From a virus, in IMG/VR virus record IMGVR_UViG_3300013102_000002, positions 96,001 through 160,000 of that record: a stretch of 64,000 nucleotides of DNA, one strand, 5' to 3'. Numbering within the stretch: position 1 is the stretch's first letter; every line of letters begins with the position of its first letter. Under the pieces are notes generated by a model, which ran no database searches, was not told the origin of the DNA, and saw only the letters and a program-made list of their open reading frames with translations. The position numbers were made by a program, and so were the translations under genes. Positions 1,137 to 57,418 of the stretch are shown here, piece by piece.

Positions 1137-1517
1137 GTGATTTTGATGCACCAAGTGTTCTCGGGTAATTTCATTATTCATAAGGGGCCGAATGGATACA
1201 AATCGCGCGAATTATCATCCTACATGACGCAACTATCAAAAGAAATTTTGGCCTATCTTCATTTTCTATTTATAACGGAAGAATCGATAAATTCTATGCT
1301 TGAGGACTATGAACTTAATCGAATTATGGATTCAGTAGTGAGTAAGAAGATTCCCAGAGAATTATTTGAAAACAGTCTCATGTCTGAAATGGATGGGTTC
1401 CCAGAATTTTATTCAGAAGAATTAATGAATAATTCATCAAACCCAAATGGGGAAATTTTAACAGTAGATATTATGAAAAAGATAGTAATAAGCTTGATTG
1501 AGAAGAAGGCCACATGA
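1137..1517 (+). CDS. Hypothetical protein (moron-like, own transcription unit)
   Basis: 126-aa ORF with AGGAG RBS, flanked by hairpins. Confidence 0.65.
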   Translation: MILMHQVFSGNFIIHKGPNGYKSRELSSYMTQLSKEILAYLHFLFITEESINSMLEDYELNRIMDSVVSKKIPRELFENSLMSEMDGFPEFYSEELMNNSSNPNGEILTVDIMKKIVISLIEKKAT

Positions 1518-1821
1518 AATACGAATTTTATCTAAAATTGCGATGAAAAAACCCTTGATTTATAAGGGTTTTTTGTTTTGTCTTTTTATGAAAATTTTGA
1601 ATTTTGGAATTTTTTCTGTTTAAGAGTGAAAATATAAGGTTAATACAAAATAAGAGAGACATTAGTCACGTATATACATATTCCCAGCAGTAATGCAGTA
1701 CTTTTCAATTTTCAGAGAATGTCAACACCAAAACACACTATTATCCTAATTTATGTAAGGAAATTTTGTGCAACAACATTTGTATTGACAAAAACAAAAA
1801 CATTTGAATTTATTGACGTTT

Positions 1822-1835
1822 AGAACAAATGTTCG
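1822..1835. promoter_or_regulatory. LexA/DinR SOS box upstream of mazF-like gene
   Basis: AGAACAAATGTTCG fits the Firmicute GAAC-N4-GTTC box; immediately after a TTGACG -35-like hexamer (1813-1818). Confidence 0.75.
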
Positions 1836-1944
1836 CTTGTGAAAATAACTATCACTAGGTATAATAAATATATAAATAGTTAATAATAAAAGTACATAGT
1901 GATAGAAAAAATAGAGTGAAGCAAGAACAATAATAATCGGGAGT

Positions 1945-2349
1945 GTGGTACATATGAGCATGGTCATGGAACGAGTGGAAATGAATAAAAATACTAAAAT
2001 CGATGTAAGGAAATATGAAGTGTGGATGGCTGATTTAAACTCAGACGGTTCTGTACAAGGAGGAAGAAGACCAGTTGTTATTGTATCCAACAATCTTCAC
2101 AATAAATTTTCTCCGACTGCCATTATTGTACCGACAACAGGAAGCAAAACAAAACGTCCGCTTCCTACTCATGTCGATCTAATTGCTTCTGAGACAGGAT
2201 TTATTAAAAACAGTGTTATGCTGTGTGAGCAAATCACTTCTATTGACAAAGAACGACTGAAGTGGAAAATAACCGACCTCCCTCTAAATTATCATGGGAT
2301 AATTAGTAAAGCCGTAGGAGTAGCGACTTCCGATGTACAAGTTTACTAA
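1945..2349 (+). CDS. mazF: PemK/MazF-family endoribonuclease toxin (start uncertain)
   Basis: GSVQGGRRPVVIVSN, PTT, LPTHV, SVMLCEQITSIDKERL motifs. Confidence 0.9.
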   Translation: MVHMSMVMERVEMNKNTKIDVRKYEVWMADLNSDGSVQGGRRPVVIVSNNLHNKFSPTAIIVPTTGSKTKRPLPTHVDLIASETGFIKNSVMLCEQITSIDKERLKWKITDLPLNYHGIISKAVGVATSDVQVY

Positions 2350-2357
2350 ATAAATAT

Positions 2358-2390
2358 AAAAAGAAGAGGTTTTTATACCTCTTCTTTTTT
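2358..2390. terminator. Bidirectional terminator between convergent mazF and XRE gene
   Basis: AAAAAGAAGAGGT-TTTTAT-ACCTCTTCTTTTT. Confidence 0.75.
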
Positions 2391-2603
2391 AGAATCATCT
2401 TTGTGATATTTAAACAAATCAATAATATCAATATCTAACTCATCACATATTGAGACAATATTCTTTAGAGGAATTTGTTTGGCTGTATTATTGCACATTT
2501 CATTGATAGTTGAATGCCTTATGTTGGTACGTCTAGAAAGTTCTCTTTTAGTAATCCCCTTGCTATCTAGTATGTATTGTAATCTTATCTCAACCCATGA
2601 CAT
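2373..2603 (-). CDS. Cro/C1-type (HTH_26, YozG-like) transcriptional regulator
   Basis: LQYILDSKGITKRELSRRTNIRHSTINEMCNN...IVSICDELDIDIIDLF HTH pattern. Confidence 0.85.
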   Translation of the reverse strand: MSWVEIRLQYILDSKGITKRELSRRTNIRHSTINEMCNNTAKQIPLKNIVSICDELDIDIIDLFKYHKDDSKKEEV

Positions 2604-2631
2604 GATGTATCCCCCTGAGAATAATTAAGTA

Positions 2632-2684
2632 TTGACTTATAAAAGGTAATCTAGTATATTAAGGGTGGAACGATAATCGTTCCA
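2632..2684 (+). promoter_or_regulatory. SigA-type promoter plus perfect palindromic operator
   Basis: TTGACT-17-TATATT (2632-2660); TGGAACGAT-A-ATCGTTCCA at 2666-2684. Confidence 0.65.
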
Positions 2685-2710
2685 AAATTTAAGCATAGAA
2701 AAATCTCCCC

Positions 2711-3001
2711 ATGAATATGGAGAGATACTTATTAAGCAATCATAACAGAGTTAGAAATGAAATCATAGGCAAAATATTACATCGAGGTGCAGTCAGAATT
2801 ATGCCTAAAACGGGAAGATATTGTTTACAACGTCTGGTTTATTTTGATCCAGAAAGCAGACTTGAAACCTGGAAAATAACAAATTTAAAAAGTGATAGTG
2901 TCCATGCTTTTAGCAATTTTAATACTGAATTATACAGAATATTTGATACATTAGAAAACAAAGTTATTCCATTTATAGAAATTAAAAACATCATAGAGTA
3001 A
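2711..3001 (+). CDS. Hypothetical protein
   Basis: 96-aa ORF after promoter. Confidence 0.5.
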   Translation: MNMERYLLSNHNRVRNEIIGKILHRGAVRIMPKTGRYCLQRLVYFDPESRLETWKITNLKSDSVHAFSNFNTELYRIFDTLENKVIPFIEIKNIIE

Positions 3002-3075
3002 TATATTATATTTTTTATAATGAATAAAAATATGACAAATAATAATTAAATGATGTATAGAAGGGTGGAACTTAA

Positions 3076-3375
3076 ATGAATATTACATACAAGCATCTTC
3101 CCAAACATAAAAAGTTCTTAGTTCAAATGAGCGGCAGAGCTAATAGATATTGTTACGAGGTGAGGTATGAAATAGAAGTTGATCGAGGAGAAAGAATTGT
3201 TGAGGGAATCAATATTCTAAAAAAAGATATGTTGAACAGCGAAGAACTAACAAAAGAAACTTTAGCAATATTCAATACAAATTTTAAACGTGATTATTAT
3301 AGGATATTTAGGCTATTGTCGGTTGAACTTATAAATGCTTACTATATCAAACCAGACTTTCTGAAGGGGATATGA
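3076..3375 (+). CDS. Hypothetical protein
   Basis: 99-aa ORF, AAGGGTG RBS; C-terminus (FNTNF..DYYRIF) resembles that of 2711..3001 (FSNFNTELYRIF). Confidence 0.6.
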   Translation: MNITYKHLPKHKKFLVQMSGRANRYCYEVRYEIEVDRGERIVEGINILKKDMLNSEELTKETLAIFNTNFKRDYYRIFRLLSVELINAYYIKPDFLKGI

Positions 3376-3379
3376 CTAG

Positions 3380-3643
3380 ATGGATGATCAAGTTGAATTG
3401 ACTGTCAAATTGGTGCAGGTGGATCGTGGAAACGATTTTTATGATAGATACTTGAGACCAAAAGATGTTAGTACATACACCTTTGAAAGCAATAGGGAGC
3501 GGTATGTATGGCAGATCAATAATCCCTATGAAGAGGGCTTGATCGAGGGAGATTATTATAAGATATGTGCAACCAAAGGGAAAAGATTGTTTGGTGGAAG
3601 AGGAGTTGCACTAATTGATGTAGTGATAACATCCTATATCTAA
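3380..3643 (+). CDS. Hypothetical protein
   Basis: 87-aa ORF, GGGG RBS. Confidence 0.6.
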   Translation: MDDQVELTVKLVQVDRGNDFYDRYLRPKDVSTYTFESNRERYVWQINNPYEEGLIEGDYYKICATKGKRLFGGRGVALIDVVITSYI

Positions 3644-3791
3644 CCAAGAAAAAACTAAATAGTGTACCATAAAAAGTTCTATACATATGCAAATAAATGA
3701 CTTTAAAGTTGTTTATTTGTGTATAATAGGACTTTTTATTGTTATTTATTAAAATAGTATTGCAATTTTTAATCACAATGGTAAATTAGGT

Positions 3792-4283
3792 TTGGGGGTG
3801 ATATGTCTGGGGTATATTAGTGAAGATAAGAATTCTTTAAGCATTATGACATACACTTTAAACAGTGGAATAAAATCGACAGTGCCTTTGTCTGCCATAC
3901 AGATTGAAGAATGGAAAGAATGCTACCAAAATGATAAGAAGTTTATAGTAAATGTAGGAACAGAAACGTTTGGCTTGAATCCGTCCTTAGTAGCGGATTG
4001 GAGAGTACATAATAAATATTCGGAACACAGAAAACAAATTGAATGTACTATTAAAGACGTAACCCCCAATATTGAATTAAAGAATGCCTACGAAAGAGCT
4101 AAAGTTTTGATAAAAGTTGATTGCAAATGTGGAACAACTTATACTACGGAATCAACAAAAAGAAAAGTTTGGTCCTGTAGCAAATGTAAGCAAGAAGTAT
4201 ATATTATTGATGATAGTCTACATGATACAAATAAAGGAAAAGCATACGTAATGTCGAATAAGGTAAATATGTTTAAAAATTAA
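3792..4283 (+). CDS. Zn-ribbon hypothetical protein
   Basis: CKCG...CSKC in C-terminal half. Confidence 0.65.
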   Translation: MGVICLGYISEDKNSLSIMTYTLNSGIKSTVPLSAIQIEEWKECYQNDKKFIVNVGTETFGLNPSLVADWRVHNKYSEHRKQIECTIKDVTPNIELKNAYERAKVLIKVDCKCGTTYTTESTKRKVWSCSKCKQEVYIIDDSLHDTNKGKAYVMSNKVNMFKN

Positions 4284-4284
4284 A

Positions 4285-5076
4285 GTGGAAAGGAAACTTA
4301 ATTTGATCAATAAAAAATTAGAAAGCAAACTTAAGGAACTTGAAAGAAGTCATGGCTATTTGAATGTTGAACTATATGATAAATACAGAGGCAAAGAATA
4401 TCCTTCAAGCGAAACCATAAAGAAAAGCTATAATCAATCTTTGGTTGAAATATTAAAAAACCTAAAAATTAAAAATAAAGAAGATTATACCATAGAAAAA
4501 AACAGACCAGTCGCCATAAGCAATATGAAGTTATTGTTCTTAGAACATGGAGAAATATCTAAGTCGTTGTATGATAGAGCTAAATTATTGCCCAGCAGTG
4601 AGTACATTACAAAAAAATATGGATGGGAAGAATTAGCTAAAGAAGCAAATGTCAAATTGGCTAATTCTCAGTACACATCGAGTGGAGCAGTTCTAAGTGA
4701 GTTGAGGTTTAGAATAAAGGAACTAGGTTACATACCAACAAGTAAAGAGTATGAACAATTAAAGCTAAAACCCTCTTTAGAAGTTTTGCGAAAGTATAGA
4801 TTTACATTTGTAAGTGCTATGCGTAAATGTGGATTTAAAACATATAATAAACCAGTTACAGTTAAAGATAAGATTTGCAACAGTAAGAATTGCTTCAGGC
4901 AGTTTACTCCTGTAGATGATGAAATATATTGCGATGAATGTTATAAGGACTTAAGATCCAGACTTATTAAAGAGATAGGTAATATGAATCAACAAAGACT
5001 TAGAGATGTCTGCCAAAAGCTAATATATACAGGAAACAAACAAAAGACAATATTAGACATATTTAACAATATGTAA
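4285..5076 (+). CDS. Protein with three homing-endonuclease-associated-type repeats and a C-terminal Zn ribbon (probable DNA binder)
   Basis: Repeats YPSSETIKKSY / LPSSEYITKKY / KPSLEVLRKY; LGYIPTSKEY; CNSKNC...CDEC. Confidence 0.6.
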   Translation: MERKLNLINKKLESKLKELERSHGYLNVELYDKYRGKEYPSSETIKKSYNQSLVEILKNLKIKNKEDYTIEKNRPVAISNMKLLFLEHGEISKSLYDRAKLLPSSEYITKKYGWEELAKEANVKLANSQYTSSGAVLSELRFRIKELGYIPTSKEYEQLKLKPSLEVLRKYRFTFVSAMRKCGFKTYNKPVTVKDKICNSKNCFRQFTPVDDEIYCDECYKDLRSRLIKEIGNMNQQRLRDVCQKLIYTGNKQKTILDIFNNM

Positions 5077-5151
5077 AATTAGCGAAATAATTAATGAGAA
5101 TTTATTATATTTATATTTTATGATATAATTTAAATAAGGAGATGAACTCAA

Positions 5152-6483
5152 TTGAAAAAAGACAGAGATCAGCTTGAAACATTAATTGCGGAGACAATTG
5201 CAGAAGTTAAAGTTGATCGGAAAAAAGTGTTGAAAGTTAATAATTTCCTCTCTGAATCAGGAGTATCATTAGGAACATTTGATGAGATATCAAAGGGAGA
5301 TAAGCAATTATCAACATTAGAATCATCAATGTTATGTGTTTTATCCGATGCTCTGTATGAACTAACTGCTAACGGGAATCTCAAACCTGACCAATGGTTT
5401 ACCACTAAAGAAATAAGTTATGCAAAAAAGGAATTAATGAACAATACAGAAACCAATAGAATAATGTTGCCTATAGCTCTTGAAAATGTTGAGATGGTAA
5501 GTATAGACAATTATATCACTAAAATTAAGATGTCCGATTTAGTTCAATGGTTTCACTCGCAGTTAATCATTTATGATTTTGATACTCAAAGAAGTGCAAA
5601 GTTTAAAACTGGTAAGAATGGAGTTGTACCTGTACCAGATATTAATTTAAAAAGCGTTGTAGATATTGCAGATAATATGTTAAATGGTACATACCTAGAG
5701 GATATGATTACTCTAAATATTTACTCAGACGAAACTGAGGCAGTTGATTATAACTCTAAATCTCGGCTGTTGACGGTTAATGAACAAGCGGTAATATCTA
5801 TCCTTGATGGGTTTCATCGTCTACAGGGAGGTGTGAGGGCCTGTGCAACCAACCCCGAGTTAGAGCAGATGATGATTCTTTCAATTAGATCATATGATAC
5901 AGATACGGCCAAGAAGTATTTTGGACAAATCAATACCATAAACGTAGTGAAAAAAGAAAGATTGAAGGAACTGAAGTCTCAAAAATTCTCAGATTTAGTC
6001 GTTAAAGATCTTCAACAAAAAACTGATCTTAAGGGCAAGATTGCATCAGCATCAAGAATAAGCGAATTGGCTGGACAATTGACCACCTTTGACATACTTT
6101 CACATGCTATTGACAATGTTTATAAACCTAAAAGCAGACTTGATGCAATGGAGATATCAGAAAAACTCACGAAATTTTTTAATTGGTTGGCAGGTAGTTT
6201 TGTTGATGAGTTTATAACAAATCCTAACAATTATAGGGATGAGAATATTAATCATTCTCTTATATTTTTAGGATATGTCGTAATTGCTAAATACTTTGAA
6301 GACAACCAAATTCCATACAAGGACATAAAGAGTTTTATCGAAAATAAAATAGATTTTAAAGACAAGAAGTTAATTGAGCTTTTAAATAATAAGCGTGGAA
6401 TCAACAATGCAAAAGTAAGAAATGATGTAATTAAATATTTTGAGCGGCTGATAGGAATAGGAGTGGATCAAGATGTCCAATAA
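5152..6483 (+). CDS. DndB/DGQHR-like (ParB/Srx fold) protein, SPbeta YopQ-like lysogeny-switch component
   Basis: ISILDGFHRLQG motif, YDFDTQR, F.QINT; lies directly upstream of the MrpR-like gene as yopQ-yopR do in SPbeta. Confidence 0.75.
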   Translation: MKKDRDQLETLIAETIAEVKVDRKKVLKVNNFLSESGVSLGTFDEISKGDKQLSTLESSMLCVLSDALYELTANGNLKPDQWFTTKEISYAKKELMNNTETNRIMLPIALENVEMVSIDNYITKIKMSDLVQWFHSQLIIYDFDTQRSAKFKTGKNGVVPVPDINLKSVVDIADNMLNGTYLEDMITLNIYSDETEAVDYNSKSRLLTVNEQAVISILDGFHRLQGGVRACATNPELEQMMILSIRSYDTDTAKKYFGQINTINVVKKERLKELKSQKFSDLVVKDLQQKTDLKGKIASASRISELAGQLTTFDILSHAIDNVYKPKSRLDAMEISEKLTKFFNWLAGSFVDEFITNPNNYRDENINHSLIFLGYVVIAKYFEDNQIPYKDIKSFIENKIDFKDKKLIELLNNKRGINNAKVRNDVIKYFERLIGIGVDQDVQ

Positions 6484-7468
6484 AATATATGAAGATGGAT
6501 TTTTTAATGAATCCCATAAAGAAATGTATCTTAAAGATCTAAGTGAAAAAACTTACGTGTCCTATGCAAGAGTCCTAAAAAGAGCACGATATGTAGAAGA
6601 ACAATTAGGTAAAGACCTATATAACTTTAATGTGTCTGAGATAGAACAACTACTTACATTTATGTCGCCTGGGTCTTATTCAGTAAGCGGTGGAAACATA
6701 AACGTAATTAGAACTTATATAAGATGGGCAATTCAACAAGACTTAAGAGTTGATAACATCAATCCGTTAGACTCCGTTATCAGTGATGAATTTATAAACA
6801 AGTTTATTGACACAACAAACAAGAAACTATTTACCGAAGAAGAAATTAATACAATCGTTGGTGGACTACAAAGCTTCCAGGATGCAGCAATAATACAATG
6901 TCTGTTTGAGGGAATAATGGGACATGAGTACTCTGAGATTTTAAACATACTCAAAGGCGATGTAGATAGGGATAGTACTAAACTAGAGGTAAGAAATTCT
7001 CCAGCATCAGGACCAATGGAAAGAAGAGTAGCCGAAGTGAGTCCTAAATTAATGAACTTACTGTACAGTGCAGCAAACGAGACAGAATACTTAAAGTTTA
7101 ATGGGATGAGTAATTCTAAAGCTCAGAGAATCGAATTAATCGAGAATGAGTATGTATTTAGATCGGTTAAACTCAGAGTGGTTAATTATGAAAGAGCAAG
7201 TAATCATTTAGTGTTAAGAAGAATAAAGAGTATTAGGGAATGGTATGGATATCCTCATCTAACTGCAACAGGAATAAAAAACTCAGGTATGCTTAAGATG
7301 GCTAGAGATCTTTATGTAGTAAATAAGACTTTAACCCGAGAAGATATAAATAAGATTTGTAAACGATTTGGAGCGAACGCAATTGCTACAACAAGGCTCA
7401 CAAAAGACTTTTTAAATGTAGATACAATCAGGTCGCTTTATCCAGAAGTAGATGAAGAACAAGCCTAA
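6473..7468 (+). CDS. mrpR: MrpR/YopR-like master repressor of lytic cycle (catalytically degenerate tyrosine-recombinase fold)
   Basis: Integrase SAM-like N-terminus, FTEEEI, LFEGI.G...SEILNI...D; the HxLRH motif is replaced by TGIKNSG. Confidence 0.8.
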   Translation: MSNKIYEDGFFNESHKEMYLKDLSEKTYVSYARVLKRARYVEEQLGKDLYNFNVSEIEQLLTFMSPGSYSVSGGNINVIRTYIRWAIQQDLRVDNINPLDSVISDEFINKFIDTTNKKLFTEEEINTIVGGLQSFQDAAIIQCLFEGIMGHEYSEILNILKGDVDRDSTKLEVRNSPASGPMERRVAEVSPKLMNLLYSAANETEYLKFNGMSNSKAQRIELIENEYVFRSVKLRVVNYERASNHLVLRRIKSIREWYGYPHLTATGIKNSGMLKMARDLYVVNKTLTREDINKICKRFGANAIATTRLTKDFLNVDTIRSLYPEVDEEQA

Positions 7469-7487
7469 AACTTGTTCTTCTTTTTTT
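7454..7487 (+). terminator. Intrinsic terminator after mrpR-like gene
   Basis: GAAGAACAAG-CCTAAAA-CTTGTTCTTC plus T7. Confidence 0.8.
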
Positions 7488-7498
7488 GTTTAAAAGTG

Positions 7499-7562
7499 TT
7501 GACTTTGGCTTTTACGCATGATATATTGAGTACATAAGAAATACATATATTTATTAATTAAA
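7499..7562 (+). promoter_or_regulatory. SigA-type promoter of the agr-like operon with phage operator motif
   Basis: TTGACT-17-TATATT with TG extension; reverse copy of TTTAATWAATAAATAT at 7547-7562. Confidence 0.7.
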
Positions 7563-7591
7563 ACAACATCATAAAAGGAGACAAGAGAAAG

Positions 7592-8248: not shown

Positions 8249-8777
8249 TAAAATATGCGGATTGGCTACAAACTATTTTCATAAATATGATGGAATGCCC
8301 GAAAAAGACGTAATAGAATATTCGCTTAAATTCATCTTAACAAATATAATTACATTTCTATTAATTATAGCATTGGGACTGACAACTGGGAATATCATCA
8401 ATGTTCTTATTGCTGCATTATCTTTTTCTTTACTAAGAGTTTTCTCTGGGGGGATACACATCAAAAACCCCGATTTATGTATATTAACATCTTTGACTGT
8501 GGTTTATGCATTAGCAAATCTACCAAGTTATATTAGTCCTGAATATGTAAAAGTTTTTATGGTCATTACTTTTCTATTAGTAATTATATATGCTCCTTCA
8601 AAAATAGAAGATCACTCTATATTAAGAAAAGAAAAGCACTATATATTTAAAATAATTTCCATAATTATAGTGTTTGCTGGAATCATTGGCAAGAATGAAA
8701 TTATACAGTTTTCTTTTTTTGTGCAAAGTCTAACCCTCATCAATATTCGCATGAAGGGGGGTGAAATTAATGAATAA
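8241..8777 (+). CDS. agrB: AgrB peptide-processing membrane protease
   Basis: LRVFSGGIHIKNPDLC (catalytic His and Cys), YSLKF, IYAPS, QSLTL motifs. Confidence 0.93.
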   Translation: MIDKICGLATNYFHKYDGMPEKDVIEYSLKFILTNIITFLLIIALGLTTGNIINVLIAALSFSLLRVFSGGIHIKNPDLCILTSLTVVYALANLPSYISPEYVKVFMVITFLLVIIYAPSKIEDHSILRKEKHYIFKIISIIIVFAGIIGKNEIIQFSFFVQSLTLINIRMKGGEINE

Positions 8778-8904: not shown

Positions 8905-8973
8905 AATTTAGGCGAATCGTCTCCTCCCATTTATATAGTGGGAGGATATGCCGCCAAATTGGAGGCTATTATT

Positions 8974-10342: not shown

Positions 10343-10354
10343 TAGAATTAAAAT

Positions 10355-13850: not shown

Positions 13851-13938
13851 TAATAAAAGACAGATTTCATGAGGATTTAATGTCTATATATGGTGTATTA
13901 TAAACAAATATACACCATATATAGATGAAATATTAATA
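13851..13938 (+). repeat. Left copy of 88-bp imperfect inverted repeat (partner 40941..41028); core palindrome plus tandem NrdR-box-like sites
   Basis: 60/88 gapless identity by hand to the reverse complement of 40941..41028. Confidence 0.8.
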
Positions 13939-14309
13939 TGATGGAGGATAATATGGATAAGCATACACATAACGTGAGTGTTAGTAATCACAATCACGGC
14001 TTTGATATTGGCGGAATTACTATCAGAGACACATCTAGTGCATTGGCGAGTATTTGGGACAGTGTTGCATATAAAACAACCAACAAAAAGGAGAATGAAA
14101 ATATGGAAACTTTGTATCAAGTAACTGTAGTAGCAAAAAATAAGGAAATTATCCTTGATAAAGAATCAGTTGTGGCGGTCGATCAAGAAAATGCTAAATT
14201 CATGGTGGGTCTTTATGGAATTTTGGCAGACAGAGAACTGACTCCAGCAGATGTAACGGTTATTGTAACGGCAATTGGTCAAGTTAAAATCGAAAAAGAA
14301 TCTAAGTAA
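13938..14309 (+). CDS. Hypothetical protein (possible internal start near 14103)
   Basis: 123-aa ORF; strong internal AGGAG. Confidence 0.5.
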   Translation: MMEDNMDKHTHNVSVSNHNHGFDIGGITIRDTSSALASIWDSVAYKTTNKKENENMETLYQVTVVAKNKEIILDKESVVAVDQENAKFMVGLYGILADRELTPADVTVIVTAIGQVKIEKESK

Positions 14310-17614: not shown

Positions 17615-19042
17615 AAGAACTTATGGCTTACGTAAACATGATTAAAGATGTTCTGGATCGTGAATATGGGAAAGAAGTTATCTTCTATAGTGAAGGAGAG
17701 TGGTATTCAAGAGACCACTCTAGAAATATTACTGTTGAAGAACTAAGAGAATACCTGCTACAGCAAACATATAAAGGTGAGGATGCTTATTGAGTCTTAA
17801 TGAATTCATCATTTCACGGAGAAAGGGAGAGGTAACATGAACGAATTTGAAGAATTAAAAGAGTATGAAGAGGATTATTTAAAAAGTAATTGGTCTCGTA
17901 TGGACTTATTTTTAGCAGAAAAAATTAAAATGCAAAGTAGTGAGTTGGAGAACTTGAGGAAGTTTTATAGTTATTTTCGTGAATTGTATGGCGAAGGTCT
18001 GGAGGTAGCAAATTGGCACAAAAACGGAGATCTGGAACCATTTGATAACCTCTTTGATTCCGCCGAAGAGTGATAAAATAAAACTTTTATGAGGAGATGA
18101 GAAAAATATGAATATTAAACAAGTAGAAAAAATTAATGATTATTCAGCATGTACCGGAGACTTGCTTCTAACTAAAGATTCTAATGGGACAGAGCAATAT
18201 TTATTATTTTGCGAATCTGATGCAAGTATAGTCTTTGACGAAGAAAGATTCAGCAAATTTTATTTTGTAAATATTAAATCAGGGTATATGTTTGAACAAG
18301 AATTGCATAGCGACGATGAAATTAAAGTGGGAACTAAGATTAATGGGTGTGGAGCAATTATTAAGATCGTACCCAGTGATGATATCGAAGTGTTATTGCA
18401 CGAGTCTAAATATAATTAAATTTTGATTAATAGTTGAGAGGAGAAGGAGTTATTGAAATTAATCAACTATCTTTTAGAAACTGACAAAGAAATTGAAACA
18501 TATGAAATGGCTGCTAGTTTTCATGAGATGGAAGTTGAAGATTACATTAAAACTGGATATTGCCCTTCGGCATTTACTGTTTTTATAAATACAGTCTACA
18601 GTAAACCACTTGTTGCCGATAAAAAGCACAAAGATTCGTGTAAATATTCCAATCTAGAGGATCAAGATAAATGTAATGAATGTTGGAGCAGAAATATTCT
18701 TTTTGTTACTAAGTAAAAATTAGAAAACATACATATGAAAGTGGGAAATAATAATGGCAAACCTGTTACCAGAAGAAAAAGAAACAGTATGCACTACGGA
18801 TGAAGAGAGCAAGGTTTGGAAAATCTATTCCATGTCAAAACCGAAGATTACGAAAATGCTTAAAGCTGGGTTTGTTCCAGTAAAAGTTGACGAAGAGGGC
18901 GGTCACTTCTTTGAAGTAGAGGATAATCAAGTTTCATTCAGAGCAAAAAGTACACGAGTTGTGAGCCAAGAACAGAAAGATGCTGCTTCAGAACGGTTTA
19001 AACAAATGTGGAAAGATAAACTCAATCAAGAGGAGGTTTAAT

Positions 19043-34742: not shown

Positions 34743-37576
34743 AAATGGCTGATAGATATTATTCGACATTGATTATGCATTATGTACCAGATGAAGTATT
34801 GGAAAAGTATGGTGTGAAAAGAACACATAAGCAATTTCGTATCGTATGTAAGGCAAAATCAAGAGCCGCCGCCGAGAGATATGTCAAAGAAGTATTGGAC
34901 ATTAATGGTGGAAAAGTTTTTGATCCTAACTATACTTCTGAAACAGGTAACAAAGAAGCGATTGACGCTGCCGACAAATTCACAGGAGCAATATCACTAG
35001 GTAATATGGGATCGGTTTATCATGACATGAAAGAAATACACAGAGAGATCGAAGAATTCAGAAACATGAAGAATTGACAACTAGAAAACCCGCATAGAAT
35101 AAGGGTTTTTTGATACATAAATCATGATAAAAGTGGCATTTCATGAGAAGGGGAGAAATGAGCGTATGACAACAATTTATGTCGTTACATATTGTGCTCC
35201 TTGGGCAGAGTATAATACCCAAAGGTCAAATACGAAGGCGTTTTATGATAAAGAAGAAGCTCAAGAATATATTAACCAAGAACTAAATAAAAAACATGAA
35301 AGTGGTCATGATGAATATTTTAAAGGTATGAATGGTGATTATGAAATTGATGAAATTGAACTGATTTAATTGATTTAGATAATATTGGAAAGAAGGGATA
35401 TTAATGAGCGTAATTACTACATACGATGAAAAAAGAGACAGACTCAGAGACGAACTTACGGATTGTCTAAAATTGGCTAAAGAGTTACTCGATGAGGACA
35501 TTTGGGGATACGATGAGATGAAAGATGATTATGCTATGAATGTTTATACGGCAGTAAAAAAGGCTAGAGATGCTGTGTAAAACACCGAATACATAAATGG
35601 GGTGATAAAATGAATGAGGTAGAACTAACAGAATTTATAAAGAATAACCTTTCAATTGAGATTGAAGAGGACTACATATCCTATAGCGGGTCTGGCATCA
35701 GAGTGAATTTGGTCTTGAATGGTGAAAGGATTTCCACAGACTATATTGTTACCAACCAAGATTAGAATAATTACAAATATTTGATAAAGAAGAGGAGAGA
35801 TGTTTATGTTTATGATGTTTATCTATGTTAATGGTACAGCACATAATAGTATGGGTATTCGCGGAGAATTGGATGAATTATACTTAATTGCAGAACAAGA
35901 AACAAAAAAGTTGTTTAAGACTAATCCACATGCCGAGATTTCAACAAAGATTACAAAATATATTTAAGATAAATCATACATTTCAACATGAAAAAGGAGA
36001 TTGATAAAAATGGATATCAAAAACACTTTTAAGGTTGCTCAAGAAATTGCCGCACTCTCTACTAAATACGAGAATGAAGACATCGGCGATAATGAACAAG
36101 CAGAGATTCTTAACAAGAAATTTATTGATGAACTAGATATGTTGCACAGCAAACTCTTACAATTAAGTATGTACGCCACAGATAAACTACTTAATAAAAC
36201 AGCAGTCAACACTAAAACTTATGAGCAACTGTCTTCATATTCTAACTTGAGTGTTTATTACATCTATGAAAACGAAGGACTTGCTCTTGTTGAAGATACA
36301 GGGATGGGTTTACATCTTGTTCCGTTGGACATTCTAAGGTTCGAAGATTAATATCTTGATTAAATTTTCTTTTGATTAAGAAAAGAAGAAAGGAGGATTC
36401 GTATGAAATATCTGTTAATCGAAAATTTAATGGGTGGATGCGCCTGGATTCTGAAGGAGTACCTAGATGAATTAGAGCTTCATGAAGTTTACAAGTTTAT
36501 GAATTCGGGAACATTTTCATCTGGAGATATTCAAAAATATATCGTTACTGAAGAAGATTTTAATAGGGAAATTGAGTCTGGAACGTTGCAGTATTTGTGA
36601 GTTGCTTATAAAATCTTTCTTTCAACAGGAATATTTTACCGCAAGCTACTTTGTGATAAATAAAGTATTATGGTGGGGTAAAATAATCCAATTTGAACGG
36701 AGAGATTTATTATGGATGATAAGACAGCAAAGATTCAACTGACTACATATAACCAATTTGGGGAATTTAGTTTTTATGTTGATCGTAAACAGATCCAGGA
36801 TTATTTAGACAGTAAGCTATCTAAAATAGAAGTCGATCAGTTTCTTGATATGTGTACGCTTAAGGATACTAGAATGCTATTTGATTGGATTAAAGAGAGT
36901 TCAGTAAAGAAAGTAGAATAGTTAAAATTGAAATTAAAAAGGATGAGATAATAATGACAGATAGAGTAAAGGGTTTATATGTGGTTCTGGATAATGATTA
37001 TAGAGATGATGATGTTCAAGAAATTATCAATGCAATTAAAATGATTAAAGGAGTTCAAGATGTTACAAATAGTATTGTTGATGGAGACGACTGGATGAAT
37101 CGTTCGAGAATTGGTTTTGAATTTCAAAGTAAAATACTTGATGTGCTGAAAGATTTGAAATAACTTAAAGAAAACTTGATTTGATTAAAAAATAAAGGAG
37201 ATGACTAATTTGATTTCAAAGGAAACATTAGATGAATTATCTGAATTCGAAAAATTTAATGAGTGTTATTATCGACCACTTACTTATAATGGCTATGCTA
37301 CTCTGGCTTGTATGCAATGGTTCGATGAATACGATTGTGATGAAAAACGATTCTTCAGAGATGAAAATGATGACAAATATCGCTTTTCAAACAAGGAAGA
37401 GGGGATTGAGTGGCTGTTTAACAATATCAAAGCTGATAAAATAGATCCTGAATATCAAGAATACAATCATGATCATTTTTACAAATAATGAAGAAACCAA
37501 AAACCCTTATAAACACTGGACTTTTTAATCACTAAAAGCGCATGAAAGCCCGATTTTATCAAGAGAGGAGAATATA

Positions 37577-38434: not shown

Positions 38435-38778
38435 GTAATGGGTGTCTGGGGAGAAATGTTATACCAAGTTAGTACAAAAACGTTAAAGATAAGAGCGCTT
38501 GAACTCAGAGATGAGATTGAAATTAAACCGAAGCGAAAATTGAAGAAAGAGTTAAAGGAAATTCTTGATGAAATTGAATATCAAGAAGGCAGACTGCAAT
38601 ATGCCAATAGGCCATATAGTTTTCCAACTGCAAAATTACCCATTCCTGGAACGGAGCTAATTGAACATGACTTGGATTGTGATTGTGGATGTTGGCTGAA
38701 GATATTTAATAAATAAATATATGTACAATAATAATATAATGTGTTATGATGAACTTGTGAGACAATACATATGAGGAG

Positions 38779-39603: not shown

Positions 39604-39889
39604 TAGATTACATGAAAGTTCTGTTTTATCAAGAAAAAAGGGAGTGGGTATTTGTGGAACATCATGATTGTGAGAGCAATATTTATTATGCTGGGACACC
39701 TGTAAATAAGTGGTTTCTTTTGGTCGAGGGCAGCTCGTGGGATACATATACTGACGGATTTGAAGTAATTAATGTTGAAATCAGTTATTGCCCTCACTGT
39801 GGAGCAAAATTGGAAACGATTAGTGAAGCTGTATAATGAAATCTCAGTTTTATAAGGAATAAAAATAATTATAATAAGGAGAATTAAAA

Positions 39890-40636: not shown

Positions 40637-40940
40637 GGATTCATGAAACCCTCATTTCATAAGGAATTTAAAAGTAAAAATACATAATTAGTCAAAGGGG
40701 ATAGATATGTTTAACAACAAGCCTAGCTGCTATGAAACAAAAGTTTTTGTTAAAAAGGGTGATTTGTTAATTGCTAATACTTCTGAATTTGATTTAACAG
40801 AAGGACGAATATATATGGTAATCAAAAATCAGGGCGAAGGTACATTTGGGGATTGTTTTTATATTGTTAACGACAAAGAAAATACACAAGATTATTCTGG
40901 AGAATATTTTTGCCATTATGAGGGTGAATTAGTCACATTC

Positions 40941-41028
40941 GACTAACATTTTGTCTATATATAGTATTTATACTTGAGAATATATCTATATATAGACATG
41001 AAAACCACATGAAAGAGGTATTTTATTA
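40941..41028 (-). repeat. Right copy of 88-bp imperfect inverted repeat (partner 13851..13938)
   Basis: Tandem CTATATATAG boxes 31 bp apart, 10-nt linker, then core palindrome 41009-41026. Confidence 0.8.
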
Positions 41029-45942: not shown

Positions 45943-46557
45943 AAAATTTTCACCTCCTAGTTGTATGACTTTACTATAAATTATAGTTTAAAAAGTAAAT
46001 AGTTATACCTGTGCTAGAACCGCGCAGTTGCTGCGTGAGTTTAATTTAAGGAGACGATTAAACTAATGAATCTTTACGAAATTCAATTTGAACATTTTTC
46101 ACAAAAAGACAGTCAAAGAGGAATTTTAGTCTATCTTGCTGCTAAGTCAGATGAACATGTTTATGAATGGTTGAAGTCTAATCCAGACCTGGGAAATAAT
46201 AATTATATTTTTACAACTTATCAAGACAATGAACGAGATGGGGAAATTTTTGATATTTATGCTGATGACTGGTCGATTATTGGAACAGAATCATTCAAGG
46301 AACGAATCATTAGATTGTCTGGAGAAATAAACGATGATGAAGTTGAACTTACTGATCTTTATTATGGTAAAACTCTTTATGGGTGGAAATTGGTCAAAGA
46401 AGATGTCAAGCCAGATGTTTTTGCAATCGTTGAGGAATGCGGCATTAATCTGATTAATGGACTGGATATCGAAATTAAAAACCCTTGATAAATAAGGGTT
46501 TTTTGCACATCATTTCATCATAAAATAAAGATTTTACACAATCTTCAGCCGGGAATA

Positions 46558-46616
46558 TTTAATAAATAAATATATATACAAAAACCATTGACATTCATTT
46601 AATAAATAAATATAAT
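46558..46616 (+). promoter_or_regulatory. Consensus SigA promoter with two TTTAATAAATAAATAT motifs
   Basis: TTGACA-17-TATAAT (46588-46616); motifs at 46558 and 46598. Confidence 0.85.
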
Positions 46617-51194: not shown

Positions 51195-52842
51195 ATGAAA
51201 TGGAAACAAAAAACACCTGTCATTCCATTTGAATCATATGACAATACGTATTCTAAACTTGCGAAACTTAACGGAATCACAAACATTGATCAATTCCTGA
51301 ATCCACTGTCTAATGTAATTTGTGATTCTTATCTGCTTAAAAATATTGATGCATTAGCAAGTCGAATCATTCTTGCAATTCGGAATCGTGAGCCTATTAC
51401 GATTACTGGCGACCCTGATTAGTTAGGATTATGACGGCGTAACTTCGTTGGTGACAATGTATAAGTATCTACTTAATTTCACTGACGAAGTATATTATGT
51501 GTGCAATGAACGATCCGAAGGTCATTCGATTAATAACTTAGTCGAAACGATTCCAGGATCAACAAAAGTTCTGATTGCAGTAGACAGTTCATCAAACGAT
51601 GTTGAGACCATGCGACTACTATCATCAAGAGGAATTGACTGCTTAATCATTGACCATCATACAGTTACAGTAGATAACCCATATGCAATTTTAGTAAACC
51701 CGCAGCAAGCCAATGACCAATATCCAAACAAAAATGCTTGCGGCGGTTTACTCGTCTTCAAGGTTTGCCAAGTAATTGATGATTACATGAATACATATTA
51801 TTCAAACAAGCTCGATGATCTTCCTGGATTTTCTCTAATGGCTGATATGATGTCAATGTTGGAATTAGAGAACAGATATTACGCAAAACAGTCACTGAAG
51901 AATTTACATCACGCAGGACTCAAAGCATTGTTTCAAGCAATGAATTATGATCTAACAAACCTATCTGCGACAGACTTTCTATACGGGGTAAGCCCTGCTG
52001 TAACAGCTGCTACACGAGCAGATAATATCCAGTTAGCAATTGACTTTCTGATGTGTATAGATGACTCAGGCGACATCAAGGGGCTTGCTAAAGAGTTGGT
52101 TAAGGCCAATGAGAAGCGTAAAGAAGTTCAGGCTGAGGCACTCAACGCATTGAAACCGTTTGTGGATGAGCGAGATAAAGTAGTAATTGTCTTCGATCCG
52201 ACACTTGGGAAAGGGATGAATGGCCTCGTAGCGCAAGAATTGTCACGGACATTCAATAAACCAGCAATTGTTCTTGGAGAAGGTGACGACAAAGATACCT
52301 ACGCAGGAAGTTATCGTGGATTAGAGGACTTTTCAATGCTTGAATTACTTAATGGTTGCGAGAGTGTAATTTACACAGGAGGACATCCGTCTGCTGGAGG
52401 GGTGCAACTACCCAAGACCAACTTAGAATTGCTTAGACAAGAACTAAATAAAAAATTGTCTAATTTTGAAGCCGACGATTCGTTGTACTATGATCTAGAA
52501 TTCAACTTGTCAGATGTCAATGAGAATCTAGTTAATTATCTGAATGAGTTTTACCGGATTACAGGCAACAAATTCAAGCAAGGCAAATTTCTCATCAAGG
52601 GATTATTCGTCTCAGATAAGAAGCTCATGGGTAAATCTGCTAATACAGTTAAGGTTGATTGCGATAAGATTCAATTGATGAAGTTTAAAACTGATGAGCA
52701 ATACTTTAACTCAGTCCCGGTATTCTCTGAAATTGAAGCCATCGGCTCACTCAACATCAACGTTTGGAAAGTTTATAAGCCCAAGTTTAAAGTCACTAAA
52801 ACACTGCAATTATTCATTGATGATTACCGGGAAAATATTTAA
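51195..52842 (+). CDS. recJ: RecJ/DHH ssDNA exonuclease (YorK-like), split by a 10-nt gap at 51420-51429
   Basis: GDPD|YDGVTS motif I across the gap, AVDS, IIDHH, LVNP, GGHPSAGG; joined product 545 aa. Confidence 0.9.
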
Positions 52843-54664
52843 TAAATAAATATATACAAATTACAAAATACATTATATAATAAAGGAGAACAATACATAT
52901 GACATTTTACGGACTGGCAACAACTCAAAACGGAGCAAGCGTAGTAATCAGAGATTTTACAGCAACAGATCGAATTGGTGTAGAAAATGAAGCAAAAAGC
53001 TATTGCAAGAAACAAGGACTGGTATTTGATAAGGTATTGCCAGAAAAGAATACAGTTAAAGGAGGATCAACACTTACCAAATACGCGAAGCAGCGTCAGC
53101 AATCGAATAACAAACGGTAATTAGTAAATATAATAGGTCTTCTATAATGGGAGGCCTATTCCTTTAAGGGAGTGCTTGAGTTGAAAAATGAAACAGTTTA
53201 TGTAGCACCTGAGTCAATCACAAATAAGAATGTTGAATACATAAAGTTGCTAAGTGGGAAAATTGATTTGAAGAAACCAAGTTTTGCATCTAGCGATGAA
53301 ATTATCGACACACTGAAAGAATTCGATTTAGAAAAACCGCGAAAACATTGAGTTTTTTGAAGGCAATAATCTGATGAAATTGAGTTTTTATCAAGAAAGA
53401 GGGATCGATTAAATGTACATATCAAGCAAGAAAGAAAAAATTTATGTAATTGGGGTAAAAAACAAAGGCTATGTTGATCAATTTGGAGGCATTAATCAGG
53501 ATGTATTTAATGCTCAAAGCTATCAGGAAGTGGATGATGCCAGAAAACATGCGGGTTTATGCACTAATTTGGGGGATTTATATATCAGAGCACTAGTTGT
53601 TGAAGACGCTGGTATTGTAGAAATTTAATTATAAGAACCGTTTCATAAAATTATATGGGGGCGATGCTTTGATTAATATTAGGGAAGTGAAAGAGATATC
53701 TAAGAGCAATGCAAAAGAAATAGTTGAAAATCTTATTGCATTAAAGGAGATAGAATCTCAAATACTTGCTGCTGCTAAGATGGGACTTACTTACACGAAA
53801 GTTGAGATTAACAATGTGAGTAAAGATGAATATACTCAAATTGGCTCATATCTTGAAATGTGTGGATATTCTTTTACTCCATTTAATGATTATCGTTGTG
53901 CTTTTATAGGATGGAAATATGAATAACAATATAAAATACAAGATTCATCAAAAAAGGAGGATAATAATGTATTATTTGCGCAAGGAATCAGAAGAAAAAA
54001 TTATTTCCGAAATTACTAAGACTGATGGGTCAGTAATACCAGAAAGAAAATTTATGAGCGAAGAACGTGCTGTCTTCAAACACCATGATTTTTCACGTTT
54101 TTATAGAGGAACATTTAATGGACTGACGGAGAAATATCAAGGTATGAAAGTATACCAGTGCAAGACATTAAAGAAAATTCTTGAGCTTAGGGAAAGTACA
54201 TTTAATTATAGTGGTGAGTGGTTTGATGTTTATGATGAGAATGGAAAAGTGGAAATTGATGATTTGAAATAGTGGTTTTATTAGGTCACAAATTCATATG
54301 AAAGGAGACTGTTCTATGCCAAACTATTTAAATGACTCTAATAACAAAAGGGTTTTTCTCTATGTGAGAGGTGATGATTATTCAGCTCTCACTTTTGATC
54401 AAAAGTTTTATGCTCAAGAAGTATACGAAGATATGGTTAGTAAAGGCGAAACGTCTAGAACGATTGACGATGAAGATTATATGGATATTGATATCGTAGA
54501 GTTTAACAAGGTTGATGAGAGATTTTTGAAGTGGGTTAAGGATTATCTCTGTGACTACGATCAACTTAAAGGCAGCGATATTTTTGAAGTTAAGCCAGTA
54601 AAGATATAATCAAATAATGCTTTCATGATGTTTTAAAAATAAAAATAAGAGGAGTTGTTGTAAT

Positions 54665-55750
54665 TTGAGTAGTTTGATTGTTGAAGTTTGTAGGGTTGAT
54701 AGCATTGAGAAGCATCCGAACGCCGATAAACTATCCATCATTAGTGTAAAGGGTTGGAATTGTATCGTTGGCCTGGATCAATACAAAGAAGGAGATTTAG
54801 TTGTTTTCATTCCACCAGATTCAATTATTCCTGAAGATTTGATTGAAAAGTATGAACTTACTTATCTCAAGAATGGTGGAAGAGTTGGCAGCACAAAGCT
54901 TCGTGGTTACATTTCACAGGGACTAATTCTTGCTCCACCACAAGGAAAGAAATATAAAGTTGGTGATGATGTAGCCAAAGAAATGAACATCAAGAAATGG
55001 GAGCCACCAACACCGTCTTACCAACAAAATCAATCTGGTAAGAAGAGTACGCCCCGTAATATTAATCCTTATTTTGATAAATATAATGATTTGGAGAATA
55101 TTAAAAACTTCAACAACGTATTCAAAGATGGTGACAAAGTTTATATCAGCGAAAAACTCCACGGAACAAGTTGGAGAGCTGGTAATCATCCGGTAGTTAA
55201 CAAAGGCATAAAAAGAAAAATAGTTAATTTCTTTAAAAAACTGATTGGTAAATATGATGGATATGAATTCGTTTATGGAAGTCGAAATGTTCAATTGTCT
55301 TATACATCGAAGAAGGGATACTACGGTGATGATGTTTACGGAAATATTGCTAAGAAATACAACATGAAAAACATCATCCCAAAAGACTACGGAGTATATG
55401 GTGAAGTTATTGGCAGAGGAATTCAGGATCTGGAGTATGGACTGGATGAGCATGATCTTTACATTTATGATATTAAACTAAATGGCAAGTATCTTCCTTA
55501 TGAAGATATGAAAGCATTCTGTGATGAGCGTAATCTTAAAGTTGTTCCACTTTTATACATAGGTGAATGGAATTCAGAATTAATCAATACATATACGAAC
55601 GGTAAATCGATCTTGGCTCCAAAACAGATTCGTGAGGGTTGCGTAATTAAAGATTACAATGAGACGAATGATCAAAGGCTTGGCCGTAAAGTATTGAAAA
55701 GTATTTCGTTTGATTACTTGACACGAAAAAATGCTACGGAATTCCATTAA
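54665..55750 (+). CDS. ATP-dependent RNA ligase, DRB0094/Rnl2-like family with N-terminal OB domain
   Basis: HPNADKL, LRG..SQGL, EKLHGT (motif I), YGEVIG, YDI, REGCVIK. Confidence 0.9.
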   Translation: MSSLIVEVCRVDSIEKHPNADKLSIISVKGWNCIVGLDQYKEGDLVVFIPPDSIIPEDLIEKYELTYLKNGGRVGSTKLRGYISQGLILAPPQGKKYKVGDDVAKEMNIKKWEPPTPSYQQNQSGKKSTPRNINPYFDKYNDLENIKNFNNVFKDGDKVYISEKLHGTSWRAGNHPVVNKGIKRKIVNFFKKLIGKYDGYEFVYGSRNVQLSYTSKKGYYGDDVYGNIAKKYNMKNIIPKDYGVYGEVIGRGIQDLEYGLDEHDLYIYDIKLNGKYLPYEDMKAFCDERNLKVVPLLYIGEWNSELINTYTNGKSILAPKQIREGCVIKDYNETNDQRLGRKVLKSISFDYLTRKNATEFH

Positions 55751-57418
55751 GAAAGGAGGTAAATAATGCACTGGTCTGATACATATCCCCATGAACTATA
55801 CGCAAATGTACTATTGCTCGATGGTAAAATTGAATGCTGGAAAACTGGAAGCACAAAAGCAGAAGGATACTGGCCTTTTAAGTCATGGTGGAAGCCAAAT
55901 CGATTGAGATTGTCTAATAGCGATCCTCACGAAGAGTGGACGATGGGGGATTACACGGTTGAATCTAAAACATGGATCGTCAACAATGACCAGGAACATA
56001 ATGATGTATTCGCCATTCACTCTAAGGAATGGTATCGACAATGGGAACATGCAGCTGATTATAAATTGGGGAGGGCTTATTGATTGAATCACGCTGAATA
56101 TAAAAAGTTGGTCAAGATTGGTGAAGAAGTATGGATTTGTGACTATCGATTTAACGATATTGACAATCAACCTATTCGTCATGTTAAGCCGACAAGAGTT
56201 TTAGTGGTAAGTAATGAGGAGTTGCCAAGCAATAAGACTGTATATTATTCAGAGTTTCATTTTAAGCCATTTGGAAAGAATGGCAAGCCACTGGCACAAG
56301 TAATTGCTCCATATGATAATACGGGTTATCGATCTTATACCGGAGAGTCACTTAATATTTTCTATGATGAAAAAGAGTGCGTGAAGCACTATAAGAAGCA
56401 ATGTGAAGGAATTATTGATAAGTTTGAAGCCGCCAAAGAATCCAAGTTGAAATATTATGACAAGAAGATTGCTGAGATTCAAGCTGAAATGGAGGAATTT
56501 TAAGAATGATTGATATATTAAAGGCAAAAATTGAATCATTACAAGAAGAAATAACTGAAATCAACTCACAAATAGAAAGTGATTTTGATCCTGATGAATG
56601 GTCTGGAGGCAACTTCGACGATTGCTACAATCTAGGATTTGAACATGGAGAGAAATTTGGTCGAATGGATGCTTATAAAGAAATGCTAAAAATTCTAGAA
56701 AGTACGAATTGAAAAACGTTGATTTATAAGGGTTTTTTAGACCGAAAAACCTCATGAAAGTCAAATTTCATTAGAAAAAGGAGAGATAAGATGATCATAA
56801 ATAAAAGTATTGAAGCCGTAAAAGGTTTGGTAGAGTATTCTATTAATTTCGATGGTTATTCAGAAGAAGATGAACTGCTAGAATATGAAGAATTCAACAA
56901 CATCAAAGAGTTGATGGTGGCATTAAGCAAAGAAAAGTTGCAAGAGATAAAAGAAACTTATCATGAAGCAGACAGAATAAAAATCATTAGTATTAGCTTT
57001 AAAGGAACAACAGAAGACAAGGATACATCATTTCAAATTTTCTTGACTGACAATGAAGTTAGAGAAAATGTTGTAGCAAAAATTGATAACGATGATATCG
57101 ATAATCGACTTCTTTCTAATGTGGAAAAGATCAAAGAAATCATTGATAACACGCTTAATCAATATCCGATCAAGTATTAATAAAATGCACATTTGATGAA
57201 GAAAAGGAGGACAGAACTTGAAAGATGAAAGAGAGTTCGAAAACGAGAATAGAATGTTATTGGGCAATATAGCTAGAATAATTCTTTCAAATGATGCAGA
57301 TGAGATCGAAAATATGAGAATATGGGCGCATAAACGAATTGATGACATGGCTGATTTTAAAATTAAAGAGACTGAATAAATTGTAACATTTATTAAGAAA
57401 AAGAAAGGGTGAATAAAT

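Follow-up and report, generated by a model that had tools for sequence, protein, structure and literature searches.

The virus record IMGVR_UViG_3300013102_000002 of the IMG/VR database comprises 174,510 bp with a G+C content of 34%. Its bases 96001–160000, a stretch of 64,000 nucleotides (nt) referred to here as the window, accommodate genes that are nearly all small and lie on the + strand. Short palindromes, called cores below, are found in the gaps between these genes, and at six places in the window a core is joined through a linker to a hairpin-like repeat. The three parts form a unit of about 61 nt: a hairpin, a semi-conserved linker of 15 nt and the 18-bp core. Eleven such units are present in the genome, namely the six of the window and those at genome positions 17042, 39585, 93573, 166905 and 173110. 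Positions refer to the window unless the genome or a relative is named.

The virus is assigned to the distant SPbeta-like phages by tblastn with SPbeta proteins, which matched the YorL polymerase at 53% identity and a YomM-like integrase at 63%, together with YopP-, YopQ-, YopR/MrpR-, YonO-, Sak4-, RecJ- and helicase-like genes. Three of the encoded proteins (YomM-, YopP- and MrpR-like) have the tyrosine-recombinase fold, and a gene for a Sak4-like annealing protein is present. Near and distant DNA searches of named phages returned no close relative and matched only the hairpin part of the unit. Prophages of five Paenibacillus species, of Bacillus glycinifermentans and of Brevibacillus reuszeri also carry the unit, which makes a Paenibacillus or a related bacillus the probable host. 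The IMG/VR relatives G001 and G002, of 164 and 167 kb, are mosaics of the genome.

The six units of the window are the following.

1514–1574, − strand: mirrored unit; core 1514–1531, 14-nt linker 1532–1545, hairpin with A-run and T-run 1546–1574 (−12.1 kcal/mol, z −4.4). It lies at the end of a + strand operon, and the core TGA at 1515–1517 stops the upstream open reading frame (ORF) of 126 amino acids. The G001 and G002 orthologues share its centre.
35085–35144, + strand: unit; hairpin 35085–35111 (−9.3 kcal/mol, z −3.9), linker 35112–35126, core 35127–35144; mid-operon, between two ORFs without Pfam match.
37499–37559, + strand: unit with decayed hairpin; hairpin 37499–37526 (−0.3 kcal/mol, no fold), linker 37527–37541, core 37542–37559; 5′ of an ORF of 285 amino acids with a weak SprT-like match.
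46477–46537, + strand: unit; hairpin 46477–46504 (−10.5 kcal/mol, z −3.9), linker 46505–46519, core 46520–46537; at an operon boundary, followed by an SPBRE-like box and a perfect (12/12) sigma-A-type promoter at 46588–46616.
53332–53391, + strand: unit with decayed hairpin; hairpin 53332–53358 (−2.3 kcal/mol, no fold), linker 53359–53373, core 53374–53391.
56712–56771, + strand: unit with partly mismatched hairpin; hairpin 56712–56738 (−5.3 kcal/mol, z −2.9), linker 56739–56753, core 56754–56771. A unit in a Paenibacillus barcinonensis prophage has the same six-base centre.

A first-pass annotation of the window had placed all six sites correctly: the repeats end 15 nt before the cores at 35127, 37542, 46520, 53374 and 56754, and 14 nt separate the mirrored core at 1514 from its repeat. 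The two hairpins that it described as decayed, 37499 and 53332, indeed fold no better than shuffled sequences.

Anatomy and spacing of the composite unit

Anchored on the core, the eleven copies align without a gap, and the A-run, the CC of the left hairpin arm, the T-run and the core all fall in register. Extra units were supplied by the IMG/VR phages G001, G002, G003 and G005, searched by T-run-plus-core patterns. In 29 units from five phages, representing at least 17 distinct loci, a single 1-nt gap occurs over 61 nt at a mean column identity of 62%, and the distance from C triplet to G triplet is always 11 nt.

The spacing is far from random. A T-run or A-run of at least five bases is found 13–15 nt from the core in 14 cases among the 74 cores of the genome, against 1.3 ± 1.1 at random positions, and the histogram of distances from the core to the nearest upstream T-run or downstream A-run shows a sharp peak at 14–15 nt. 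In four relatives 23 of the 47 T-run-to-core gaps of 0–30 nt lie at 13–16 nt. Hairpins of this family sought independently of cores in G000, G001, G002 and G004 are accompanied by a core at the same distance, ±1 nt, in 12 of 14 cases. The conserved spacing claimed by the first-pass annotation is thus confirmed as a non-random feature, but its value ranges over 13–17 nt in relatives and is not strictly 15. Similarly, the 'two helical turns' suggested for the distance apply only to the 21 nt that separate the base of the G-C stem from the core; centre to centre, hairpin and core are about 38 bp apart.

The linkers resemble one another. Their mean pairwise identity of 0.42 compares with 0.27 in shuffled linkers and with 0.31 ± 0.026 in sequences flanking other cores, where 2000 draws reached 0.43 at most. 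In a leave-one-out profile they score 5.4, other core flanks −4.1 (upstream) or −2.8, and random 15-mers −8.3. As the linkers are alike not only in length but also in sequence, the unit is to be regarded as one repeated element of about 61 nt, rather than two elements held at a set distance. The two best-scoring outsiders to the profile are the flanks of the cores at 13853 and 41009, where the linker is joined to a long AT-rich palindrome. The constant piece is therefore linker plus core, with a structured neighbour abutting it. No Rfam covariance model matches at gathering score anywhere in the window, no mention of the palindrome or the composite was found in the literature, and none of the named phage records searched carries the whole unit.

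The core palindrome

The core has the form ATRAAA-N6-TTTYAT, with a variable six-base centre in its 18 bp. Copies with at most one mismatch number 74 in the genome and 34 in the window, and the strict pattern yields 16 exact + strand copies against 0.2 in shuffled sequences. A hairpin accompanies about 15% of the cores, and 63 of the 74 stand without one. In the early region the core mostly begins 0–13 nt past the upstream stop codon and ends 17–30 nt before the next start, and it makes up the greater part of most early intergenic gaps. Its own TGA or TAA is the real stop codon of eight upstream genes. Mechanically compiled ORF lists take the ATG in the core for a start and so begin genes too early, as with 39612..39836 and 35124..35369. 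In annotation, then, the core ATG is a source of false gene starts and the core TGA or TAA a genuine stop for several genes.

Several functions of the core were considered and set aside. As an RNA stem it lacks covariation between positions 3 and 16, where a hand count gives G..T 14, A..C 6, G..C 2 and A..T 8; the SPbeta version, read as an RNA stem, would consist of A-U pairs throughout. A leader peptide, or a hairpin across the core that hides the ribosome-binding site (RBS), is not general.

In SPbeta itself the palindrome reads ATAAAA-N6-TTTTAW and is present in about 35 copies. It adjoins a stem-loop five times, with annotated gaps of 2, 7, 8, 17 and 17 nt; at the yorZ/yosA site 14 nt were counted by eye between core and A-run. 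These variable gaps show that the spacing lock belongs to the 61-nt unit family and is not a property of all relatives. Around ordinary cores, A-runs start 14–17 nt past about 10% of copies, the place that the hairpin A-run takes in mirrored units. A more distant 168-kb relative, G004, carries a fixed 7-nt flank (reverse complement GTGGTTT) between most of its cores and the RBS, so that clades differ in the extended consensus of their junction site.

The hairpin

The hairpin consists of an A-run, CCC, two optional T-A pairs, a loop (11 nt between the triplets), GGG and a T-run, and its predicted shape is that of a bidirectional low-GC intrinsic terminator. The copies vary widely in folding: three of the eleven are strong (−12.1, −10.5 and −9.3 kcal/mol, far better than shuffles), two are intermediate (56712, −5.3 kcal/mol, and genome 93609, −4.3 kcal/mol) and six do no better than shuffles. 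From copy to copy the stem register moves by one. The terminator shape, a G-C stem followed by a T-run, is present in five of the eleven copies, and the stop codon abuts the A-run in seven. This stop codon comes before the A-run, and a slippery frameshift site in the A-run was accordingly rejected.

Sought alone, the hairpin is found at no fewer than 101 distinct IMG/VR loci; for at least 84 of these no core lies 40 nt away or closer. Further matches are unannotated intergenic hairpins in phages of Paenibacillus larvae, the Bacillus cereus group and Streptococcus thermophilus. This wide distribution in Firmicutes phages without the core points to a common terminator shape, not a special arm site. 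The G-C-richer terminators of the genome have no core nearby.

The loop is inverted with unchanged arms both between orthologues (1546–1574 and G002 105059–105082) and between paralogues (genome 17000–17029 and 39540–39568). Such flip-flop between constant arms suggests occasional formation of the hairpin in DNA, through template switching or recombination of the arms. The 15-bp core of the attachment site (att) of the SPbeta-related phage H2, published in Table 2 of PMC8270828, is closely like the C-triplet-plus-loop part of the hairpin family (e.g. G005 18260–18285). The likeness may reflect only the integration of H2 into a host terminator of common shape.

Orientation and gene context

Along the genome the + strand order is hairpin-to-core twice, core-to-hairpin twice and then hairpin-to-core seven times; within the window, one mirrored copy is followed by five pointing one way. 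Relative to transcription, seven units read stop codon, hairpin, linker, core, RBS and start. In the other four the order is stop codon (within the core or close to it), linker and hairpin: 1514 and genome 93573 with + strand genes, genome 17042 and 39585 with − strand genes. In both arrangements the hairpin follows the stop codon and precedes the next RBS. Two of the three good folders, 1546 and 46477, stand at operon ends, the former 5′ of a region that contains ORFs on the opposite strand and a further bidirectional terminator. The non-folding copies of the early region are situated mid-operon. Nine of ten flanking ORFs belong to no Pfam family.

Reading of the window copies and a promoter scan revealed no −35/−10 pair within the unit. 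The junction of T-run and linker is often −35-like, but no −10-like sequence follows 16–18 nt on, and an internal sigma-A promoter was discarded; an extended −10 reading fits only a few cores. Among the units, only that with its core at 46520 has a promoter, a separate element some 50 nt further on. No recombinase gene adjoins a window copy, and one unit of the genome is located about 400 nt downstream of the YomM-like gene.

Islands and homology breaks in related phages

Comparison with G001 and G002 shows that the unit is kept while its neighbours are exchanged. Units persist in these phages as islands of 60–88 bp with 83–97% identity between non-homologous flanks. The unit at 35085–35144 is in G002 an isolated island of 88 bp and 90% identity, with identical linker and six-base centre and unrelated genes on both sides. 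That at 37499–37559 is an isolated island of 75–80 bp in both relatives, and the G001 copy still folds (−8.1 kcal/mol). For the unit at 46477, the homology with G001 starts at 46475, two bases 5′ of the first base of the hairpin, and G002 retains a 60-bp island of 97% identity.

At 53332–53391, homologies of 3.4 kb (G001) and 2.2 kb (G002) stop at the core, each in a different manner. G001 keeps the hairpin, the linker and the left core arm and differs in the centre and the downstream gene; G002 keeps the centre and diverges just past the core (53391–53394); in G005 the centre and right flank are kept and the left side is different. Break positions include the edge of the hairpin (46475, 37500), a point left of the centre (53374, in comparison with G001) and one to the right of the core (53391–53394, in comparison with G002). 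The outer edges of the unit and the core act as break points, with no single crossover position. Of the 76 homology end-points counted in all, 13 are no more than 6 nt away from a core or unit, where 2.0 ± 1.4 would be expected.

Cores with the same centre may carry the hairpin in G001 and lack it here, as at G001 15242 (window 41009) and G001 48230 (genome 171253). The exchanged pieces are single genes between neighbouring cores, not blocks between composites. These comparisons uphold one part of the first-pass annotation, namely that hairpin and core form one composite of fixed geometry, kept where pairing has been lost and found at points of gene exchange between related phages. The mobilisable units that it placed between composites do not agree with the single-gene exchanges.

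A candidate junction cassette

The anatomy of the unit, its rigidity, the similarity of the linkers, the conservation of islands and the positions of the breaks are most simply covered by a junction cassette resembling the promoter-early stem-loops (PeSLs) of T4-type phages: a 61-nt family serving as transcription punctuation and as a patch of homology, and inherited as a block. We consider the chances of this reading to be about even. The sites would be copies of one intergenic sequence family of SPbeta-like phages of Bacillales. Intact copies would end or attenuate transcripts at operon ends, whereas copies moved into mid-operon positions would have lost their pairing, either through selection against termination there or by plain decay. 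Inheritance and exchange of the three parts as a single block, rather than a need of two sites for a set distance, would account for the fixed spacing.

The block would also offer 60–80 bp of locus-specific homology on which related phages recombine. Annealing proteins such as the Sak4-like ones allow recombination on short, diverged homology, and the simplest route would be the phage's own relaxed homologous recombination with its Sak4-like protein. Recombination on the block would replace the genes on either side, so that the unit alone persists as a conserved island. From the pattern of sequences we infer termination, decay and the role of recombination in producing the breaks.

The first-pass annotation had argued that a plain terminator would neither keep its spacing nor tolerate loss of pairing. 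Descent offers an answer to this objection, as the 61 nt are one repeated family and the mid-operon copies look like decayed terminators.

A number of observations weigh against the junction cassette. Insertions and deletions are nearly absent at about 38% sequence divergence, which suggests a constraint on length beyond what descent alone explains. The six non-folding copies still keep the A-run, the CC and the T-run, as neither plain decay nor a working terminator predicts, and over the 29 units the left hairpin arm is better conserved than the right. Few insertions and deletions, retained runs and CC, and the bias to the left arm therefore leave room for a real distance constraint. On the side of termination, pairing of the T-run with the A-run kept a simple terminator scan from calling these hairpins, and a working terminator mid-operon would starve downstream genes where no promoter follows. 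On the side of exchange, 18–60 bp is short for ordinary homologous recombination, and one break falls inside the core beside its centre, as site-specific exchange would also give.

Other explanations of the fixed distance

The first of the alternatives, an attractive form of distance constraint that we nevertheless regard as unlikely, makes the distance functional. A protein bound to the palindrome would halt RNA polymerase some 14–15 bp upstream, at the end of the T-run, and convert a weak hairpin into an efficient, regulated terminator. Halting at this very position would account for the fixed distance. Polymerases blocked by EcoRI Q111 reportedly halt about 14 bp before the site, in work by Pavco and Steege of 1990. 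The T-run ends 13–15 nt before the core in all eleven copies and 14–17 nt before it in relatives, the hairpins are weak (−5 to −12 kcal/mol), and the length of the unit is held much tighter than the distance from core to start (17–46 nt). Against this as a general rule, four of the eleven units are the wrong way round for sense transcription, six cannot fold and would not terminate, and the CCC-to-core distance is more constant than that from T-run to core. We know of no protein that binds the core. Protein roadblocks to transcription have been reviewed (PMC10310618), and phage repressors that halt elongation at many intergenic sites, known as stoperators, have been described (PMC9283540).

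Next in rank, and improbable, stands a fixed docking platform, in which the hairpin arms would be a second palindromic protein site about 38 bp from the core, centre to centre, and A/T tracts every 10–11 bp or so would bend the DNA for a multi-protein complex in silencing or replication. Such a platform would suit the conservation, rather than covariation, of the stem sequence, the survival of the left arm and of both runs in copies that no longer pair, and the occurrence of units in both orientations relative to genes (7 to 4). It would also suit the A-runs that recur 14–17 nt beyond ordinary cores and the different palindrome that linker plus core adjoins, at the same distance, at 13853 and 41009. 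The poor conservation of the right arm is something that a dimer site would not tolerate, however, and the same hairpin abounds elsewhere without cores. The phasing of the A/T tracts is modest and suggestive only.

Third comes the model of the first-pass annotation, in which the palindrome is a crossover core of tyrosine-recombinase type and the hairpin an accessory or arm site, conferring direction and marking the left and right ends of cassettes. We regard this as similarly improbable. The core does have the form of such a site, with inverted arms round a 6-bp centre that varies between sites and is kept at each locus. Three proteins of the appropriate fold are encoded, the YomM-like one 63% identical to its SPbeta counterpart and with a unit some 400 nt downstream. 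Gene replacements end at units and cores, in one case between left arm and centre, and the loops flipped between orthologues suggest that a DNA hairpin forms at times. The model is nevertheless difficult to reconcile with orientations that show no left/right pairing, variable break positions, a hairpin of generic terminator shape that lacks a core in many phages, and the lack of a recombinase gene beside any window copy. The 63 cores without hairpin mark exchanges as well, which weakens a core-plus-arm architecture further, and the relative with the same left flank and another centre is not what exchange between matching centres would give. Moreover, MrpR, the only studied protein of this fold, is a repressor that binds a different motif (PMC10516654). 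The units are thus not supported as ends of mobile elements.

Least probable is the fuller version in which the 61-nt unit would be the entire site of a recombinase-fold protein (a YomM-, YopP- or MrpR-like paralogue), with the hairpin, as extruded DNA or second palindrome, as direction-giving accessory in an exchange of single-gene cassettes addressed by the six-base centres, which, if true, would amount to an integron-like system carried by a virus. Replication polarity was dismissed as a cause, since GC skew tracks gene strand only.

Variant units and other repeated elements

Two variants of the unit, with different centres, occupy 13851–13940 and 40940–41028 in opposite orientation, as the two members of an inverted-repeat pair; each comprises a core, a family linker and an AT-rich palindrome.

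13853–13925, − strand: variant unit; core 13853–13870, 14-nt family linker, and a long AT-rich SPBRE-like palindrome replacing the hairpin. Its linker score of 10.7 is the highest of the non-composite core flanks (mean −2.8).
40994–41026, + strand: variant unit; AT-rich palindrome, then a 15-nt family linker and core 41009–41026. The G001 core with the identical centre has the usual hairpin.

The core was at first expected to be SPBRE, the operator of the SPbeta repressor MrpR. The motif at the ten SPbeta promoters defined by chromatin affinity purification with sequencing (ChAP-seq) is different, and this identification was abandoned. The SPBRE motif was read upstream of yorE, aimR, yonT, yonP, yonX, yorZ, yosX, yopV and yopM and is unlike both core and hairpin. 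The phage under study possesses an SPBRE-like box of its own, an AT-rich motif that ends in ATATGTACAA and lies directly upstream of sigma-A-type promoters. Many copies of this box occur in G001 and G002. It probably serves as operator of the MrpR-like repressor and is not the same as the junction palindrome. Another recurrent element, A-rich and of AAAAATAAAA type, is found between core and RBS in a subset of junctions, 8–17 nt downstream of many cores. The places of both are as follows.

38698–38750: SPBRE-like box (38698–38730) and promoter, separate from core and hairpin.
46549–46616: SPBRE-like box (46549–46587) and promoter, likewise separate.
Genome, about 1470 and 169290: further boxes with promoter, likewise separate.
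Genome 92047, 135836 and 150609, and SPbeta 113663 and 132746: examples of the AAAAATAAAA-type A-rich element.

An ORF of 105 amino acids at 713–1030 is similar to SPbeta MrpR over residues 1–79 of the latter (28% identity, E 2e-7) and may represent a short MrpR paralogue or a fragment of the N-terminal part of the repressor.

Comparison with known systems

SPBRE is a repeated intergenic element of the same phage group and is bound by a recombinase-fold protein (PMC10516654). In contrast with the unit, it has another sequence than core and hairpin and sits at promoters, as a 15-bp motif under MrpR ChAP-seq peaks.

Like the cores, the stoperators of cluster A mycobacteriophages are short conserved sites that occur by the dozen in the short intergenic gaps of a temperate phage and in many cases abut stop codons (PMC9283540), a likeness that suggests a protein acting on the elongating polymerase. 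Stoperators, however, are asymmetric 13-mers oriented with transcription and recognized by a monomeric repressor, whereas here the core is palindromic, its positions 3 and 16 are independent and a hairpin is found at about 15% of sites.

Lambda-type att sites with core and arms, and the attC sites of integrons, likewise present inverted arms round a short centre, a second structured element nearby and gene-sized exchangeable segments. Unlike the lambda-type sites, the unit has a single hairpin on one side rather than arm-type repeats on both, its ends do not pair, and crossover does not fall at a consistent point. Its stem of A-run and T-run, perfect or decayed, differs from the bulged hairpin of attC, and neither the ORF list nor the SPbeta comparison contains an intI-type platform with integrase, attI and cassette promoter.

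Bidirectional Rho-independent (intrinsic) terminators resemble the hairpin in having an A-run, a short G-C stem, a loop and a T-run between a stop codon and the next RBS. The hairpin described here differs in being locked to a palindrome at a fixed distance, in keeping its length and both runs after pairing is lost, and in having three G-C pairs only.

The closest parallel is provided by the PeSLs of T4-type phages (PMC2839356, PMC4122927). They too are small composite intergenic cassettes with a terminator-type stem-loop, repeated many times among small genes of unknown function in variable early regions. In both systems the motif is conserved while neighbouring genes are inserted, deleted or replaced, with crossovers inside the motif or at its edges. 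PeSLs contain a sigma-70-type promoter where the unit has an 18-bp palindrome with variable centre, and as no promoter is present the unit is not a PeSL in the strict sense. PeSLs belong to T4-like myoviruses, whereas the unit is found in SPbeta-like siphoviruses of Bacillales, in both orientations and with over half of its stem-loops decayed. By analogy, the unit would stand nearest to the PeSL kind, as an example previously undescribed in SPbeta-like phages. These phages are a model for the control of lysogeny, in which the punctuation of early operons and the trading of small genes are undescribed, and a rigid, portable unit provides a handle on whether phages of Gram-positive hosts employ PeSL-like homology patches, as T4-like phages do, or a dedicated enzyme.

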